Origin: an uncultured archaeon
Lineage (GTDB): Archaea; Asgardarchaeota; Lokiarchaeia; Sigyniarchaeales; SOKP01
Direction of reading: 5' to 3'
DNA: 23,446 nt
Assembly (NCBI GenBank): GCA_964525635.1
Contig: CAZGJX010000062.1
Span: 1,932 to 25,377 of the forward strand
Below the pieces are notes generated by a model. That model was given only the letters and a program-made list of their open reading frames with translations. It had not been told where the DNA came from and searched no databases. Every line of letters starts with the position of its first letter. Position 1 is the first letter of the stretch. Positions 1,271 to 17,791 of the stretch are shown here, piece after piece. The translations under genes and the position numbers were made by a program.

Positions 1271-1276
1271 AGGTGA
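1271..1276 (+). promoter_or_regulatory. Shine-Dalgarno-like AGGTGA upstream of the GTG start of the GTPase gene
   Basis: AGGTGA ends 4 nt before GTG at 1281. An in-frame TAA at 1248-1250 excludes a much longer N-terminus. Confidence 0.55.
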
Positions 1277-1280
1277 ATTT

Positions 1281-2220
1281 GTGAAAATATCCCTTGTAGG
1301 AATTAGTGGATGTGGTAAAACAAGTATATATTCTGTTGCTTTTGCCGGTAATTTCCCTGAAGATACTAATTCTCTAAATCCTACAATCTTATATGAAACA
1401 AGACGCCATCCTTTTCTTGGACTCCAAATTGGAATATAATTAATATGCATATCGCATTAAATATTCAATCGATTTTGGAGGACAGGCTCAATATAGAAAA
1501 GAATATATTGAAAGACCAGAGGTCTTTAAAGGGACAGACGTATTAGTACCTATAGTAGATTTACATGATGCTGAGAGTTTTGAAGAAGCGGAGGAATATT
1601 TTAAGGATTTATTAAATGTATATAAAGAAAATAATGAGAAACCAAAAGTTATCCTTTTCTATCATAAATATGATACAGAAAACTTTGAAAAAGAATTACT
1701 TGATGTTAATGTTTCCAAAGCGAAAGATATTTTTGAGAAAATATTTCAAGGATATGAACTAAAATCTTATTTAACAAGTATTTATAATCAGGATAATTTA
1801 GCCAAAATCTTCCGAGAAATTTTAATTTCTTCATATGAAGATATAAAAGAACATTTAGAAAGAGCACAAAAACAACTAGATCAAATAAGAGCAAAAATTA
1901 TTATTTCTGATATATCTGGTAATATTATAGTTCATAATGTGAAGGGTATTAGTAGAGGATTGTCTTTAAGAATTGATTTAAGAGATTTCATAAATTCATG
2001 TAATACTGTACGAGAGAATATATTTATGTCAGAATCGGCAACTTTTAAAGGATTTAATAATAAAAATAAAGAGTTAGAATTATATATTATTAAATATATT
2101 ATCGCTGTTCTAATTATGAAATCTGAAAAAATAGATAAAGACTCCCAAAATAAATTGAACATTCTTTTAAATGATATGGAATTATTTGCTGATTTAATTG
2201 TTTCAGCACATATAGAGTGA
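1281..2220 (+). CDS. Rag/Gtr-like (Arf/Rag clade) small GTPase with C-terminal roadblock-like domain; split gene join(1281..1437,1469..2220), 302 aa
   Basis: Exon 1 is MKISLVGISGCGKTSIYSVAFAGNFPEDTNSLNPTILYETRRHPFLGLQIGI (G1 GxxxxGKTS, G2 PT). Exon 2 is open from 1471 to TGA at 2218-2220, with DFGGQ (G3), HKYD (G4, Rag-type HKxD), TSIY (G5) and a C-terminal IIISDISGNII segment resembling roadblock strands. Confidence 0.88.
1438..1468 (+). other. Putative 31-nt bulge-helix-bulge (tRNA-endonuclease-type) intron in a protein-coding gene: AATTAATATGCATATCGCATTAAATATTCAA
   Basis: Outer stem CTCCAAATTG (1422-1431) / CGATTTTGGAG (1470-1480), central 4-bp helix GAAT (1432-35) / ATTC (1463-66), 3-nt bulges ATA (1436-38) and AAT (1467-69), inner pairs ATT/AAT and hairpin ATGC-atatc-GCAT. 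Cleavage after the 2nd nt of each bulge gives ATA T|TC GAT, restoring the frame. Confidence 0.78.
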
Positions 2221-2297: not shown

Positions 2298-2903
2298 TTA
2301 TTTGCGTTTTAAAGGGATTTCCCACTTATATAAATTATTAAAAATCATACTTAATAATTTTTCAAATGTATCAAGAATAACTTCACTATTAATTGCGATA
2401 GTATGATTTAAACCAATGTTATCATAATTATCATAATTTATTTTATCCAGAAATGATTTGATTTCAAATTTATTAGATAAATCTTGTTTATTAAATGATA
2501 TTATTTTTGGAATATTATTTATTATCTCTTTTTCAAAATAACTCATTAATTCTTTCCATGAAACAATATTCCTATTAAAAGCTTTTTGTTGAGAATCAGC
2601 AACAAATATTAATCCATCTATACCTTTTAATACTGTAGGTCTTGTAATAATATAAAAATCTTGGCCAGTTATTGAATAAATATTGATTTTTAGAAGCCAT
2701 CTTTCATTTTGAAATAAAATAACACCATAATCAAAAAATAATGTCCGATTAATGCTACTCTCATTACTTTTTACATCTTTTTTTTTCCCAAAATGATTAA
2801 ATAAAGATTTTAATGATGTTGTTTTACCTGAAAGTGCAGGTCCAAAATAAACTATTTTAATCTGAATGATTTTCTCTAAGCTATTTAATATCATATTATA
2901 CAA
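2298..2903 (-). CDS. MglA-like small GTPase
   Basis: KIVYFGPALSGKTT (G1), RTLFFD (MglA switch I), SITGQ (cf. MglA TVPGQ), DGLIFVADSQ, NKQD (G4). Confidence 0.88.
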   Translation of the reverse strand: MYNMILNSLEKIIQIKIVYFGPALSGKTTSLKSLFNHFGKKKDVKSNESSINRTLFFDYGVILFQNERWLLKINIYSITGQDFYIITRPTVLKGIDGLIFVADSQQKAFNRNIVSWKELMSYFEKEIINNIPKIISFNKQDLSNKFEIKSFLDKINYDNYDNIGLNHTIAINSEVILDTFEKLLSMIFNNLYKWEIPLKRK

Positions 2904-4304: not shown

Positions 4305-6170
4305 TCATAAATTCTTTGAAATAACTTTTTCTTGATAATTAAAAATAGATTCTATTAATTTTATAATGGAATTTGGAGGATTTTTATTTAGTTTTAAATA
4401 TCTTGTAGCTACAAATCTAGCCCTCAAACCCTTCTTTTTGCCTATTCCATATTTTTTGCTAACATAATCTTCAAATTTCCGATATTCAAAATCATCTCTT
4501 CTTAATTGTTTTTCAAAATAGGGATCAAATACAAAATAATTATCACCAGAATTTGAGGGATAATCTGAAGGTTTTTCTCCACAAAATTGTAATAACCATC
4601 TATTTAATTTTTTATGTGTCCATCTTTCTTTTGAATATCTATCGTTATCGAATATTAAAAAAACAGGTATATCAAAAATAGAAAATAATTCAGCATAATC
4701 TATCATTATATATTTACCTGCTGTTTGAATAAGAATAATCCCTTTTTCATCAAAATTCTTACCTAAAAGTGAAGCCCAAATAGGTAAACTTAAGAATTCT
4801 GTAGGACCTTCACATAATACTACTATATTTCCGAAGAATCCTTCCCTGATTGAAATTGTAAGCATTTGTAACAGTCTAGCCTTAATATTTTTAGGAGAAC
4901 ATTTTCTCCTCAAGCGTCTATTTTTAATATTACATAATTTTTGGTAATCCAATTGTTTTATATATGTACCATTTCTTTCTGATTTCATAACTAATAGGAC
5001 TCTATCTAAATGTTCTGGAGGAACTAAATAAGGAGAATGTGTAGTATAAATAATTGATAAATTAGGATTTTCAATGAGAAATTTTTCCATTAATATAATA
5101 ATATTCCGTTGAGCATTTGGATGGAGATTTACATTAGGTTCATCAATTAAAATTATTGACGTTTTTTTTTTTTCTATTTTATTGTAAATATACACTAAAA
5201 ATGTAAATAACCATATTTCTGCATCGCCCTTTTGGTTTATATTTATTAGTTCTCCTTGTTCTTCAACTAAACACTCAAAATAATTTGAATTAAATCTCAT
5301 CAGAAAGTTATTTTGTTTTCTAATCCAATTCTCCTGTAAAAAACTTTCCAATCCTTTATCTCTTTTTTCAGCTAATTGATTTATGATATGAGAATTATTC
5401 TTTTCTCTAATAAAATCTTGAATTTGCAGTTTCATTGAATCAAAAATCAGTTGATATATTTTATTTTCTTGATAACACACTTCATCATAAATTAAATTAT
5501 TAGAAAACCCACTAAATATCCGGTAATTAAATTTGATAAAAAGAGGGGAATGATTTTTTATCATTTCTTTGAGATAGGATACATTAAAAACGATTTTATT
5601 TAATAAATTCTCCAGTTGATGGTAGTCCTCATTATTGATTATTTTTTGGTTATCTTTAATTTTTTCTTCTAATTTTTCTAAATCTTCACTCATTTTATTT
5701 AAATTATGATAATAATTATGAAGTTGTAAAAGATATTGGTCTTCAATATCATGCTTCCTTAATAATTGGATAATTTTCTTTATATCTTCATCAACATATT
5801 CATCTAAATATTTTCCATTTATTTTATAATTAAATCCGTCATAATTTGTAAAAAATTTTGTTATTTTAACATATTTTCGTTTATTTCTTTCATTATTAAT
5901 AGGTTCTAAGAGATTTGAATGATTGATTTCTTTTTCTTCCATTTCAATTTCAATGGATAACTCTGTTGTAGTATAAAGTTCATTTCTTGGTCTATCATCA
6001 GGTTGTATATTAGAAATATTTGTGTTAAAATATTGTAGAGCATCAATTATTGAAGATTTACCCGAAGCATTTTTACCTATTAAAACTTGTATACGATCTC
6101 TATGAAAATACCATTCTTTTGAATCCTTTATTGAACGAAAATTTTTAATTCTTATTTTTCTTATTTCCAT
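4305..6170 (-). CDS. OLD-family ATP-dependent endonuclease (ABC ATPase + TOPRIM)
   Basis: IKNFRSI, Walker A GKNASGKS, Walker B LIDEP, TTHSP, TOPRIM CEGPTE and FDND. The likely start is ATG at 6170 (MEIRKIRIKNF) rather than TTG at 6209. Confidence 0.88.
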   Translation of the reverse strand: MEIRKIRIKNFRSIKDSKEWYFHRDRIQVLIGKNASGKSSIIDALQYFNTNISNIQPDDRPRNELYTTTELSIEIEMEEKEINHSNLLEPINNERNKRKYVKITKFFTNYDGFNYKINGKYLDEYVDEDIKKIIQLLRKHDIEDQYLLQLHNYYHNLNKMSEDLEKLEEKIKDNQKIINNEDYHQLENLLNKIVFNVSYLKEMIKNHSPLFIKFNYRIFSGFSNNLIYDEVCYQENKIYQLIFDSMKLQIQDFIREKNNSHIINQLAEKRDKGLESFLQENWIRKQNNFLMRFNSNYFECLVEEQGELININQKGDAEIWLFTFLVYIYNKIEKKKTSIILIDEPNVNLHPNAQRNIIILMEKFLIENPNLSIIYTTHSPYLVPPEHLDRVLLVMKSERNGTYIKQLDYQKLCNIKNRRLRRKCSPKNIKARLLQMLTISIREGFFGNIVVLCEGPTEFLSLPIWASLLGKNFDEKGIILIQTAGKYIMIDYAELFSIFDIPVFLIFDNDRYSKERWTHKKLNRWLLQFCGEKPSDYPSNSGDNYFVFDPYFEKQLRRDDFEYRKFEDYVSKKYGIGKKKGLRARFVATRYLKLNKNPPNSIIKLIESIFNYQEKVISKNL

Positions 6171-6477
6171 TTCTATTTTTTTAATAATAGTTTTCCCTTT
6201 TAATTTCAATGGTAATTCTTTGAAATCTCAGATTCAATATATAAAAATTGAAAAAAATAAGAAAAAAATGTAAGAATAGATTTACTATGAATTAATTATC
6301 TAATCAATTAAAATGTTTGATTTTATTAAATATAGAGACGAGATTTTATCAATATAATTGATTTAGATTTTAAATTTTATATAAATACTCCAGATTCACA
6401 TATTTTAGAATTTTAATAAACTTAATTAAATTATTTTAATTATTATAAAGAAAGCAATATATTATAATTGAAATAAC

Positions 6478-13295: not shown

Positions 13296-14741
13296 ATGAA
13301 AATCCATCTTATTAATCCTGCTCCTTTAAGGTTACATTATGATCAAAATGAACCATTATTTTATGCTTCTTCCCCTCCCTTAGGATTAATGTATCTCGCT
13401 ACATGTCTAAAAGAAAAAAGTCATAATGTAAGTATCTTAGATCAAGCTGCATGTAATTATAATAATAATGAGGTTATTGAATGGATTAAAAGAGGAGATC
13501 CTGATATTGTTGGATTTTCAGTTATATGTGCATCTATTAAAAACACAATATTAATTTCTAAAGAAATAAAAACTTGGAATCCTAATATAAAAATTATTCT
13601 TGGGAATTATTTAGCCACATTTTATGCTTATAAAATTTTAAAAAAATATAATTGGATTGACATTTGTGTAAGGGGGGAGAGTGAAAAAATATTTACAGAA
13701 TTAATAGAAAAATTAGAAACCAATAAAAATATCAGTGAAATTAATGGAATAACTTATCGATATAATGGAAAAATAAAAGAAAATCAACAACATAAAATAA
13801 TAAAAAACCTTGATGAATTACCTTTTCCCGACAGGAGTTTAATTCCTGATGTATATAAAAATCGTATTTGTGGAATTGATATAACAAAACGTAAATTCAC
13901 AACAATAGTTAGTTCCCGGGGGTGTCCATATTCATGTAATTTTTGTGGATGCTCCGCTTTTTCTCAGTATCATTGGCGTACTCGATCAGTTGATAATATT
14001 ATACAAGAAATTCGCCAATTAGAAGGTCAAGGATATAGAGAGATACTTTTTGTTGATGATAATTTCACATTAAATAAGAAAAGAGTAGTTGATTTATGTA
14101 ATAAGATTAAAAATGAACATTTAGATATAGCATTTACATGTGATGGACGAGTTGATAATAGCACTACTAATTTTTTAAGAACTATGAAAGATGCAAATTT
14201 TGAAATTATTATGTTTGGAATAGAGAGTAGTTCTCAGAGAATATTAAATTATTATAATAAAATGATTACACCAGAAATGAGTAAAATAGCTATAAAAAAT
14301 GCTAGGAAAGCAGGATTTAGGTTCATTATTAGTTCATTTATGATTGGTGCTTTTGATGAAACTTATGATGAAGCAATTAATACTCTCAAATTTATTTCAA
14401 AACTTGATATTGATTTTCCTCATATAATTTTTACAAGAGCATTACCAGGAACTCAATTATTTAACAATTTGGTTCATAATAATATTATAAGTGAAGATGA
14501 ATATTGGGAAACAGGTATAGATCTTATTGATTTACCTCAATCTAATATGAGTCGCCAAGTCATATATAAAATAATTAAACAGAAATTCCATTTACATTTC
14601 TATAGACCAACTTATTTACTTAAAGCTTTGGGTAGAACATTAATTAGCAGATATAGACGAGAAATAATATTAAATCACTTGAATTTACATGATTTTAATA
14701 CATTTATTAAAATAATAAATAATCCCCCAGATTTATTTTAA
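13296..14741 (+). CDS. B12-binding domain radical SAM protein (copy 1)
   Basis: PPLGLMYLA, RGESE, SRGCPYSCNFC, VDDNF, GIES. Confidence 0.93.
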   Translation: MKIHLINPAPLRLHYDQNEPLFYASSPPLGLMYLATCLKEKSHNVSILDQAACNYNNNEVIEWIKRGDPDIVGFSVICASIKNTILISKEIKTWNPNIKIILGNYLATFYAYKILKKYNWIDICVRGESEKIFTELIEKLETNKNISEINGITYRYNGKIKENQQHKIIKNLDELPFPDRSLIPDVYKNRICGIDITKRKFTTIVSSRGCPYSCNFCGCSAFSQYHWRTRSVDNIIQEIRQLEGQGYREILFVDDNFTLNKKRVVDLCNKIKNEHLDIAFTCDGRVDNSTTNFLRTMKDANFEIIMFGIESSSQRILNYYNKMITPEMSKIAIKNARKAGFRFIISSFMIGAFDETYDEAINTLKFISKLDIDFPHIIFTRALPGTQLFNNLVHNNIISEDEYWETGIDLIDLPQSNMSRQVIYKIIKQKFHLHFYRPTYLLKALGRTLISRYRREIILNHLNLHDFNTFIKIINNPPDLF

Positions 14742-14767
14742 AAATGTTTTAAGGAGAAAAAAATTTA

Positions 14768-16318
14768 ATGAAAATCGTATTGATTAATCCCAGTTTGGAA
14801 ACAAAGATATATTCTCCTTGGCCTCCATTGGGAATTCTTTATTTAGGAACTATCCTTAAAGAGAATGGATTTACAGTTAACTTATTGGATGCAGCAGCAA
14901 AAAATTATAGTAGTACTCAAGTTCTAAATTGGATTAAACAAAAAAAACCAGAAATAATAGGTATAAGTATATTTACAATAGCATTTCTTCCTACAATTAA
15001 ATTAATAAGATTAATTAGAAAATGGAATCCCTCTATTAAAATCATAGTTGGTCATTATCATCCCACCATAGAAGCAGAACAAATTATTAGAAAATATGGT
15101 GATTATATAGATTTTTGTGTTAGGGGTGAAGGAGAATATACATTTCTTGAATTATGTGAATATTTAGATAAGAATATTGATAAGTTACCATTTCACATGA
15201 AAGGATTAACATTTAGAGATCAAAATAAAAAGATAATTTCAACTCCAGACGCTCCTTTAATTGTTAATCTAGATATACTTCCTTTTCCTGATAGAAAATT
15301 AATTGATTTTGATTATAAATGGAATTTTGCAGGCTTTGAATTCTCAAAATCAAAATTGACAACTATGATTTCTTCTAGAGGATGTCCTTTTAATTGTTCA
15401 TATTGTGCTTGTTCAAGATTAGCAAAACGTAGATTTAGACCAAGAAACCCTCAAAATATAGTAAATGAAATGCTTTTAATAGAGGATCAGGGATATACTG
15501 AATTAAATTTTGTTGATGATAATTTCACACTTCAACCTAAAAGAACAATAAAAATTTGTGAATTAATTAAAAAAGAAAAAATCGATATCAATTGGCACAC
15601 AGATGGTCGTGTCGACCAGACATCACAGAATATGCTAAATTGGATGAGAAAAGCTGGGTGTAAATCTATATGGTTTGGATTTGAAAGTGCAAATCAAAGA
15701 ATTCTTGATTTATATAATAAAAGAACTAAAGTTTCACAATTTAATGAAGCAATTCGTAAATCACGTAAAGCTAATATTGATTTAATCATTGGGCTATTCA
15801 TGCTTGGCGCACCGACTGAGACTTTAGATGAAGTTAAAAATACAATTAATTTTGCAATAAATTCCGATATTGATGTTCCATTTTTTAATGTAGTAGAAAT
15901 TTTCCCTGGAATAAAATTTTGGGATGATTATCTTTCTAAAGGTATAATTAATTCACATGATAGAGTGTTAGCTTGTATCGGTGAAGGAATTCATGAAGTT
16001 GAACGATGGGAGACTACTACTAGAGTTATTGATTTTCTTTTATCACCAGCAGAACAAGAAAGAATGTTAAAAAAAATCCATAATGCATATCAATTATTTT
16101 TTTCTTTTAGTAGAATGAAATATCTAATAAAAACAGCTTTTCGTACTATCAAAAGTAAATTTATGCTAAACATAGTTATTAATTCAATAACGAACTTCAA
16201 AGATGCAATGAATGCAATTACAACTTTTCGTAACTCAAAACCTAAGGGTTTTGGTACATATGAAGTTGAAATAAATAAAATTTCTTCAATAATCAATGAG
16301 AAAGATAAGAAAATATAG
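14768..16318 (+). CDS. B12-binding domain radical SAM protein (copy 2)
   Basis: PPLGILYLG, GHYHPT, RGEGE, SRGCPFNCSYC, VDDNF, GFES. Confidence 0.93.
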   Translation: MKIVLINPSLETKIYSPWPPLGILYLGTILKENGFTVNLLDAAAKNYSSTQVLNWIKQKKPEIIGISIFTIAFLPTIKLIRLIRKWNPSIKIIVGHYHPTIEAEQIIRKYGDYIDFCVRGEGEYTFLELCEYLDKNIDKLPFHMKGLTFRDQNKKIISTPDAPLIVNLDILPFPDRKLIDFDYKWNFAGFEFSKSKLTTMISSRGCPFNCSYCACSRLAKRRFRPRNPQNIVNEMLLIEDQGYTELNFVDDNFTLQPKRTIKICELIKKEKIDINWHTDGRVDQTSQNMLNWMRKAGCKSIWFGFESANQRILDLYNKRTKVSQFNEAIRKSRKANIDLIIGLFMLGAPTETLDEVKNTINFAINSDIDVPFFNVVEIFPGIKFWDDYLSKGIINSHDRVLACIGEGIHEVERWETTTRVIDFLLSPAEQERMLKKIHNAYQLFFSFSRMKYLIKTAFRTIKSKFMLNIVINSITNFKDAMNAITTFRNSKPKGFGTYEVEINKISSIINEKDKKI

Positions 16319-16351
16319 ATAATTTAAAATAGTTAATTATAATTGGTATTA

Positions 16352-17791
16352 ATGAAAATTGCACTTATCAATCCTGTTCCAATGGATTTAACTCATAAAG
16401 ATCCTCGTCCAAAATTCTCTAATTTTGCTGAGCCATTAGGATTGCTATATATTGCGGAAGTTCTAATAAATAATGGATATGAGGTGTCAATTTTTGATCA
16501 TGGGGCAACAAATTATAATTTTACTCAAGTCGTTAATTGGATTAAGAATAAAAATCCTGATGTACTTGGGATTTCAGTATTAACTCGTTCCTTCCTTTCT
16601 GGAATTAAAATCGCTAAACTAGCTAAAGAGTGGAATCAAAATATAAAAATTATATTAGGAAATTATCATACAGTTTGTGCGGAAAGAATATTAAATAAAT
16701 ATGATTTTGTAGACTTTTGTATACAAGGTGAAGCTGAACATACATTTTTGGAATTGTTGACCTTAATCCAAAAAAAAAGTAATAATTATGAGGACATTAG
16801 TGGTATATTTTATAGAAAAAATGGATTTATAAAGTCAACAAAACCTCGTGAATTAGAAAGAAATATAGATATATTTCCAATCCCTAATCGAGGATTACTT
16901 AAAGAAAATACATATAAGATGTCTCTAGGGGGTATTAATATATCTAATGATAAATCGGGGACAATAATTATGAGTCGTGGCTGTCCTTTTCAATGTAGAT
17001 TCTGTTCAGTTAACCAAAGAAGTTGGCGCCATAGATCTGTTAAAAATATAATTCAAGAATTACATATTTTAGAGTCAGAAGGATATAGGGAAATAATGGT
17101 AATGGATGATAATTTTACATTAAATCCACAATGGGTTATTGAAATTTGTAAAAATATTAGAAAGGAAAAGATTGATTTGATTTTCCATTGTGAAGGAAGA
17201 ATCGAAGGAACCAAAGAAATGTATGAATTTATGAATAAAGTAAATTTTAAATCAATTTTCTATGGTATGGAAAGTGGTAGTCAAAGAATATTAGATTATT
17301 ATAATAAGAAAATAACTCCATCAAAATCTAATTTAGCTATAATGAAAGCAAGAAAGGCTGGAATAGAGATTTTAATGGCCTCTTTTATTATGGGGTCACC
17401 AATCGAAAATATTAATGATATTCAAAAAACAATACATTTTTCACAAAATATCGACATTGACTATGCTATGTTTCATATATTTGAAGTTTTTCCTGGCATT
17501 AAAATCTGGGAAGAATTAAAAGAACAAAATAAATTAAATGAAGATAAATATTGGGAAACGGGTGTTAGAGTTCCTGAACTATCTTTTTACCCATATAAAC
17601 TAGATTTCTTAACAAATTTAATAAGAAAAACTTATAGACAATTTTATTCCTTGGGAAGACCAAAATTCATTTTTAAACAAATTATTAGATCACTAAAAAG
17701 TAAATATCGTCGTGATAAATTAAGAAATTTAGCTAAAGATTATCATTCTTCTCTAAGATTATTAGATTCATTGAGTGAAAAAAGATTTTAA
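16352..17791 (+). CDS. B12-binding domain radical SAM protein (copy 3)
   Basis: MKIALINP start at ATG 16352 matches the paralogs; PLGLLYIA, GEAE, SRGCPFQCRFC, MDDNF, GMES. Confidence 0.93.
   Translation: MKIALINPVPMDLTHKDPRPKFSNFAEPLGLLYIAEVLINNGYEVSIFDHGATNYNFTQVVNWIKNKNPDVLGISVLTRSFLSGIKIAKLAKEWNQNIKIILGNYHTVCAERILNKYDFVDFCIQGEAEHTFLELLTLIQKKSNNYEDISGIFYRKNGFIKSTKPRELERNIDIFPIPNRGLLKENTYKMSLGGINISNDKSGTIIMSRGCPFQCRFCSVNQRSWRHRSVKNIIQELHILESEGYREIMVMDDNFTLNPQWVIEICKNIRKEKIDLIFHCEGRIEGTKEMYEFMNKVNFKSIFYGMESGSQRILDYYNKKITPSKSNLAIMKARKAGIEILMASFIMGSPIENINDIQKTIHFSQNIDIDYAMFHIFEVFPGIKIWEELKEQNKLNEDKYWETGVRVPELSFYPYKLDFLTNLIRKTYRQFYSLGRPKFIFKQIIRSLKSKYRRDKLRNLAKDYHSSLRLLDSLSEKRF

Follow-up and report, generated by a model that had tools for sequence, protein, structure and literature searches.

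A Rag-like GTPase gene split at its G3 motif

The window, by which we mean the whole 23,446-nt stretch of DNA analysed here, lies on contig C62 of a Lokiarchaeia genome (G000; 4.45 Mb, 27% GC) and carries, at 1281-2220 (+), a gene for a GTPase of the Gtr1/RagA family that is split by 31 nt at 1438-1468. Exon 1 (1281..1437, +) starts with GTG, 4 nt downstream of a GGTGA read in the sequence (1272..1276, +) that is Shine-Dalgarno-like and presumed to act as such, and encodes the P-loop GISGCGKT and switch I before ending on the first base of a Phe codon (phase 1). Exon 2 (1469..2220, +) supplies bases 2-3 of that codon, the G3 motif DFGGQ, the G4 motif HKYD and the C-terminal half up to the TGA at 2218-2220. 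The 31 nt between them (1438..1468, +), termed the type A intron below, have no counterpart in ~100 orthologs, and their bulge-helix-bulge (BHB) geometry and covariation in eight carriers point to a putative substrate of the splicing endonuclease EndA and the ligase RtcB. We consider it highly likely that the locus is one gene for a 303-residue Gtr1/RagA-like GTPase with a 31-nt BHB intron in the Phe codon preceding G3 (DxxGQ).

Exon 1 is open in frame 3 from the GTG at 1281, codes for 52 residues including the P-loop, and runs into a TAA at 1437-1439, with a second stop of the same frame inside the insert (TAA, 1458-1460). Exon 2 lies in frame 1, where a TAA at 1441-1443 is followed by an open frame from 1444 to the TGA at 2218-2220, and it offers no in-frame ATG, GTG or TTG before 1939 (165 codons). 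The open frames of the two exons do not overlap, and therefore neither a single indel nor a single frameshift can join the halves. Direct reading thus bears out the original prediction, made from the letters of the window, that the gene breaks at G3 with stops in both relevant frames and that no such simple event repairs it. A reading as two separate polypeptides was considered and rejected.

Excision of 1438-1468 gives ...GGA ATA T/TC GAT TTT GGA GGA CAG, that is IGIFDFGGQ, and a joined product of 303 aa, the length of RagA and Gtr1. Each half is recognized separately by the Pfam family PF04670, Gtr1_RagA (cut-off 22), exon 1 with 26.4 bits (E=5.5e-6) and exon 2 with 47.7 bits (E=1.7e-12), while an intact ortholog scores 90.4 bits (E=1.5e-25) and has yeast Gtr1 and human RagA as its best solved relatives (E about 1e-17). 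The identity of exon 1 to its equivalents in orthologs is 73-87%. Close homologs bear public names that assign the window to Lokiarchaeota/Promethearchaeota, within the Asgard archaea.

Distribution of the insert and its support in DNA

With exon 2 as the query against 41 and then 135 related genomes, we found the ortholog in 112 genomes of the family, and in ~100 of the 112 it is continuous, with a frame of at least 300 aa. In all 17 uninterrupted orthologs that were read, a single codon TTY stands between the exon equivalents, giving GI-F-DFGGQ; relative to them, the window has the same Phe codon plus exactly 31 nt. The boundaries of the insert cannot slide because the bases at its two ends differ. 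The interval 1438..1468, for which the BHB rule and the protein motif had been said to converge, is the same one that the uninterrupted orthologs define.

An insert at the identical nucleotide position (Phe, phase 1) is present in seven further genomes or contigs and falls into two unrelated sequence families. Type A (31 nt) is shared with G002, G144, ENA ERZ27271168 and Logan SRR28370465, and type B (34-35 nt) occurs in G015, G129 and GCA_019057735. The type B loci (L009:2250-2284(-), L023:1376-1409(-) and L040:459-492(+)) occupy the same nucleotide position as window 1438-1468. The insert of G002, a member of the same genus as the window, is 74% identical, and that of G144, from another genus, is a homologous 31-nt insert also found in two JGI metagenome contigs; a sequence-pattern search for type A introns returned only two records, both identical to G144. 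The closest relative is ENA ERZ27271168 (77% identity), and both it and the Logan carrier were reached via short gene calls in the protein database, which held no near-identical full-length product of this species, its best match being 77% identical. One genus holds both intron types (type A in G144, type B in G129), and most of its members have none. In every carrier examined, removal of the insert yields an open frame of 303-306 codons. The comparison of orthologs for presence, absence and covariation that had been proposed with the prediction thus gives ~100 genes without the insert and seven other carriers with compensating changes. Among paralogs of other genera, L026 (G041:C459) has one in-frame TAA in place of a codon and no insert, which is either a true nonsense mutation or an error of sequencing and contrasts with the intron cases.

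Public gene calls for the carriers are short proteins comprising exon 2 only, the first residues of which are translated intron (P0021, P0043, P0050, P0104, P0100, P0049 and P0091; one of them is an NCBI 'hypothetical protein'). The suspicion that gene callers miss such genes was therefore well placed, as the carriers' public calls are cut short at the insert. Since standard callers truncate or split genes of this kind, part of the annotation is wrong in Asgard proteomes and in lists of eukaryotic signature proteins.

Because the window derives from a metagenome-assembled genome and the depth in other runs is low (about 4-5x), an assembly or sequencing artefact, in which the insert would not be part of the real DNA, deserves consideration. 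The sequencing runs examined for the stretch are represented by DNA contigs; run X1 yielded none there, and Logan contigs from two other salt-marsh samples, X2 (the whole stretch) and X4 (1328-1484), carry the insert without any difference, which answers the call for a check of its presence in DNA. Homologous inserts also occur in independent NCBI, ENA, JGI and Logan assemblies, and an artefact is accordingly hardly conceivable. The intron sequence is single-copy in the genome, and the exact spliced junction was not found in the metagenome contigs.

Folding, selection and splicing enzymes

EndA cleaves after the second base of each bulge of a BHB motif. In the predicted fold of the window (all elements on the + strand), exon bases 1432..1435 would pair with intron bases 1463..1466 to form a 4-bp central helix, which is paired in 100% of the cells of the covariation alignment of eight carriers. 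It would be flanked on one side by a 10-bp exon-exon helix, the outer helix, between 1422..1431 and 1470..1480 (U1473 bulged, U1430-G1471 a wobble pair; 90% of cells paired across the eight carriers), and on the other side by the intron hairpin. The inner helix of that hairpin joins 1439..1443 to 1458..1462 in the same alignment, with one A-A mismatch in this genome, and is capped by a terminal hairpin at 1445..1457 of 4 bp (1445-1448 with 1454-1457) and a 5-nt loop; in the SRR28370465 carrier, this hairpin keeps three of its four pairs, two of them by compensatory changes. Geometry places the 5' three-base bulge at 1436..1438 (predicted cut 1437/1438) and the 3' bulge at 1467..1469 (predicted cut 1468/1469), the latter being seen even in the unconstrained centroid fold. 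A heteromeric EndA would cut each bulge on the 3' side of its second base (after 1437 and 1468), RtcB would ligate the exons to restore ...IGIFDFGGQ..., and the intron would be released, probably as a circle. Folding and geometry confirm the pairing originally described (a 10-bp outer stem, a 4-bp helix, two 3-nt bulges and a hairpin), and the cut rule applied to it removes 1438-1468 and returns GIFDFGGQ as in the uninterrupted orthologs.

The 76-nt region folds more stably than its shuffles (z = -3.9). We defined a strict BHB by 4/4 central pairs, at least four outer pairs, at least three inner pairs and 3-nt bulges, a geometry met at a rate of about 5.5e-5 per position-and-length (13,972 hits per strand; 4.48 Mb x 57 lengths), and the BHB of the window sits at the single position and length that restores the frame. 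The strict test found a frame-restoring register in the window, G144, G015 and G129; the inner helix has three contiguous bp in the window (4/5 pairs) and 5-6 bp in the other three. On the alignment of eight sequences, which represent about 4-5 independent lineages, 91% of all cells are paired, with the central helix intact in 8/8. Its second pair joins a synonymous Gly third base to an intron base and appears as A-U in four carriers, C-G in three and U-A in one. Changes on both sides are seen in six pairs in total, including all five of the inner helix, and the type A introns differ from each other in loops and bulges or by compensatory or wobble-compatible changes. None of 500 shuffles paired or covaried as well as the real alignment, and with the partners displaced by 1-3 columns only 25-62% stayed paired. 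Folded without constraints, type B carriers adopt the canonical BHB as their minimum free energy (MFE) structure. A scan of 1200-2300 against Rfam gave no match at E <=1; a self-splicing group I or group II intron was rejected on this ground and because a ribozyme intron would need far more than 31 nt.

These features also bear on translational recoding, in which ribosomes would bypass the 31 nt in the manner of phage T4 gene 60 or shift frame. The gene 60 take-off site combines a stop codon with a hairpin, and the window looks superficially similar, with a stop directly after the last sense codon of exon 1 and a hairpin in the gap. However, every carrier has one base of the Phe codon before the gap and two after it, so that a hop between matched codons cannot yield GIFDFGGQ; no pair of matching take-off and landing codons leads into the right frame; the non-overlapping frames exclude a simple frameshift; and covariation between exon and intron in a 4-bp helix bordered by 3-nt bulges is specific to BHB motifs. 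We therefore regard recoding as very improbable.

The enzymes expected for removal of a BHB intron are encoded in the genome, with two EndA genes (PF01974, ~200 aa each, on C18 and C105) and one RtcB gene (PF01139, on C119), all above the Pfam cut-offs. Asgard EndA has been reported as a broad-specificity (alpha-beta)2 type (PMC5829648), and two genes of ~200 aa fit such a heteromeric enzyme. ARAGORN predicted an intron in 19 of the 51 tRNA genes of the genome.

The exons are under purifying selection. Between G000 and G002, both of which carry the insert, dS is about 1.1 and dN/dS 0.19, and in the type B pair dN is 0.10 with dS saturated; neither pair shows a further stop or frameshift. Because exon 2 is selected without a start codon of its own, the joined product must be made at a useful level. 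Relaxed selection and loss of the pairing had been named at the outset as outcomes that would speak against splicing; what we observed instead was a dN/dS of 0.19 and compensatory pairing.

Several observations nevertheless weigh against an intron that is simply spliced out. In the type A introns, including that of the window, the BHB lies ~3 kcal/mol above the MFE (-9.4 vs -12.5 kcal/mol), which retains the outer and inner helices and opens the weak, A/U-rich central helix. The competing 6-bp register (GAAUAU/AUAUUC) against which the original prediction had cautioned is present in the window and is adopted by the ensemble centroid, and a 29-nt BHB-like register (cuts after 1438 and 1467) would leave a stop. 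G002 has two mismatches in its inner helix. The codons used already give intronless orthologs 6-9 of the 10 outer-helix pairs, making that helix weak evidence by itself; in Watson-Crick pairs, carriers have 6-9 and intronless orthologs 1-7. On the evolutionary side, dN/dS is higher in this genus than the values of about 0.04-0.05 found elsewhere, and searches of the congeners G001 and G003 (99% and 89% complete, respectively) did not find the Rag-like ortholog, only paralogs of at most 37% identity; the faster evolution of the genus and these two negatives together imply that constraint may be partly relaxed there. Finally, cleavage and ligation themselves are what we infer from the insert, its boundaries, distribution and geometry, the selection on its exons and the enzymes, all of which were observed.

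The structural points leave some room for a real BHB that is cut for regulation or whose cut products are only partly ligated, perhaps as a means of limiting expression: the type A BHB is not the predicted MFE, the window has an unproductive alternative register, and removal of a BHB from the 5' UTR of Haloferax HVO_1309 affects expression (PMC7714728). Purifying selection on an exon 2 without a start requires a useful level of joined product, and we consider this alternative improbable. Slightly less probable still is a pseudogene, in which a 31-nt insertion inactivated the gene and the halves are decaying. Such decay could account for the ortholog not found in two genomes of the genus and for the elevated dN/dS, and broken copies do occur in the family, as in the G041 paralog with its in-frame nonsense codon. 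Yet both exons are fully open in all eight carriers, carriers that diverged by dS >1 have a dN/dS of 0.19 or lower, the structure of the insert itself has been kept by compensatory changes, and inserts at the same nucleotide in several genera, each time with BHB cut sites that restore the frame, are unexpected from random inactivation. An intron spliced by EndA and RtcB remains the reading that we favour, which very probably makes the insert one of the rare introns of archaeal protein-coding genes.

Further sites, neighbouring genes and known systems

Sequence comparison indicates that in other Lokiarchaeia the Rag-like gene is interrupted by BHB-type mini-introns at three additional sites, four in all. 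At the G4 motif (HKYDTE/D), BHB-type inserts of 29-31 nt occur in G103, G106 and G129 (L024:1203-1233(+), L025:1102-1132(-) and L023:1135-1163(-)). Their motif is relaxed, with 3/4 central pairs (one mismatch) and 4-5 outer pairs, and the inner hairpin of 8-10 bp includes a compensatory change. In the RRHPFLG stretch, the insert lies in the His codon in three records and in the following Pro codon in one (L040:401-428, L042:1103-1132, L043:1216-1246 and L044:271-299). The L044 insert (site 0b) is a fully canonical BHB with 4/4 central, seven outer and six inner pairs, and its ends and central helix resemble those of the type B G3 intron ~30 nt downstream. G129 holds G3 and G4 introns together, and two records carry two introns each.

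It is conceivable, if doubtful, that BHB mini-introns are mobile in Lokiarchaeia, arriving repeatedly at short exon stretches able to pair with the intron 3' end, often in conserved motif codons, and then moving between lineages by recombination. Hints in this direction are the four positions in one gene (two PFLG registers, G3 and G4) the likeness of the site-0b intron of L044 to type B in its ends and in the exon/intron central helix that it uses, and the presence at G3 of two unrelated introns sharing one exact site, either of which is found in several genera while a single genus holds the two. Near the intron, the exon flanks of G129 resemble those of G015 more than those of its sister G023, a weak hint that lateral spread with co-conversion may have occurred. 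The resolution of the gene tree is too poor to tell a single gain followed by many losses from lateral spread.

Elsewhere in the same genome, the RNase HII gene (L033, G000:C4:29572-30216, -) contains a 30-nt in-frame insert with a TGA inside GIDEAG/RG, and the cuts of one BHB register restore the catalytic motif GIDEAGRGPV. This comparable insert lends support to the suggestion that the lineage may splice protein-coding genes. Strict scans miss it because its outer helix has a bulge. A genome-wide scan for split genes, combining strict BHB geometry with the joining of open reading frames, had been suggested with the prediction and did recover the Rag-like intron (C62:3368), but its hits were no more numerous than those for a mirror-image decoy geometry (276 vs 271, and 80 vs 82 after a no-start filter), and the scan therefore cannot count introns.

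The convergent neighbour of the Rag-like gene is an Arf/Ras-like small GTPase gene (window 2298-2903, -), which likewise adjoins the Rag-like copy of the closest relative (L041:2009-2608). The rest of the window includes three tandem paralogs of B12-binding radical SAM enzymes (13296-17791, +), with genes for a LuxE-like acyl-protein synthetase, a family-2 glycosyltransferase and a CDP-alcohol phosphatidyltransferase 5' of them. An OLD-family nuclease-like protein (4305-6209, -; AAA_15 ATPase plus OLD-like TOPRIM) is a candidate defence gene, and the A/T-rich intergenic sequence at 1-220 contains imperfect direct repeats of 21-64 nt that are not CRISPR-like.

In the literature examined, BHB introns in coding regions are described only for crenarchaeal cbf5, encoding a pseudouridine synthase (Watanabe 2002; Yokobori 2009, PMC2738675). 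A 2020 paper that adds a 5'-UTR example of its own still names no other case than cbf5 (PMC7714728). The scope of a 2026 preprint on the tRNA introns of Asgard archaea does not include mRNAs, and our full-text literature search turned up no BHB intron reported for a protein-coding gene of this group. The published record amounts to essentially one archaeal coding-region BHB intron (cbf5, Crenarchaeota) plus the 5'-UTR element of Haloferax. A tRNA-type intron in a eukaryotic-signature GTPase would extend enzyme-dependent mRNA splicing to the Asgard archaea, the lineage closest to eukaryotes, as would the further positions in the same gene and the comparable RNase HII insert, and the combination of covariation and patchy distribution offers a tractable system for the gain and loss of such introns.

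The cbf5 intron, rightly named in the original prediction, is the closest published precedent (PMC2738675). In both cases, a short intron of an archaeal protein-coding gene lies in a BHB-like motif with cuts between bulge bases 2 and 3 (PMC2738675), interrupts a catalytic motif codon in phase 1 (that of the catalytic Asp in cbf5 and of the Phe preceding DxxGQ in the present gene), and has a patchy distribution with lineage-specific absence in hosts with a heteromeric EndA. The present case differs in its phylum (Lokiarchaeia, Asgard) and its gene (a Rag/Gtr-like GTPase), in its motif, which is canonical hBHBh' in most carriers while the majority of cbf5 introns have been called unconventional, and in having two unrelated introns at one site and at least three further positions in the same gene. 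Moreover, splicing of cbf5 was shown by cDNA and in vitro cleavage, whereas the intron reported here is known from DNA comparison. The BHB in the 5' UTR of HVO_1309 of Haloferax volcanii likewise places a substrate of the archaeal splicing endonuclease in an mRNA rather than in tRNA or rRNA (PMC7714728), but it lies in an untranslated leader where no frame is interrupted, in a euryarchaeon with a homodimeric enzyme. With the bypass of phage T4 gene 60, the locus shares a coding gap of tens of nt that starts at a stop codon and contains a hairpin, and differs in lacking matched take-off and landing codons and in splitting a codon across the gap. The introns of archaeal tRNAs, which measure 11-175 nt (PMC2738675), share the recognition motif, the predicted enzymes and a similar size, and the predicted ligated product here would mimic an anticodon stem with a 7-nt loop joined at the position equivalent to 37/38. 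In contrast to tRNA introns, however, the host RNA of the Rag-like intron is an mRNA without a tRNA body, and the exon part of the motif also codes for conserved residues.
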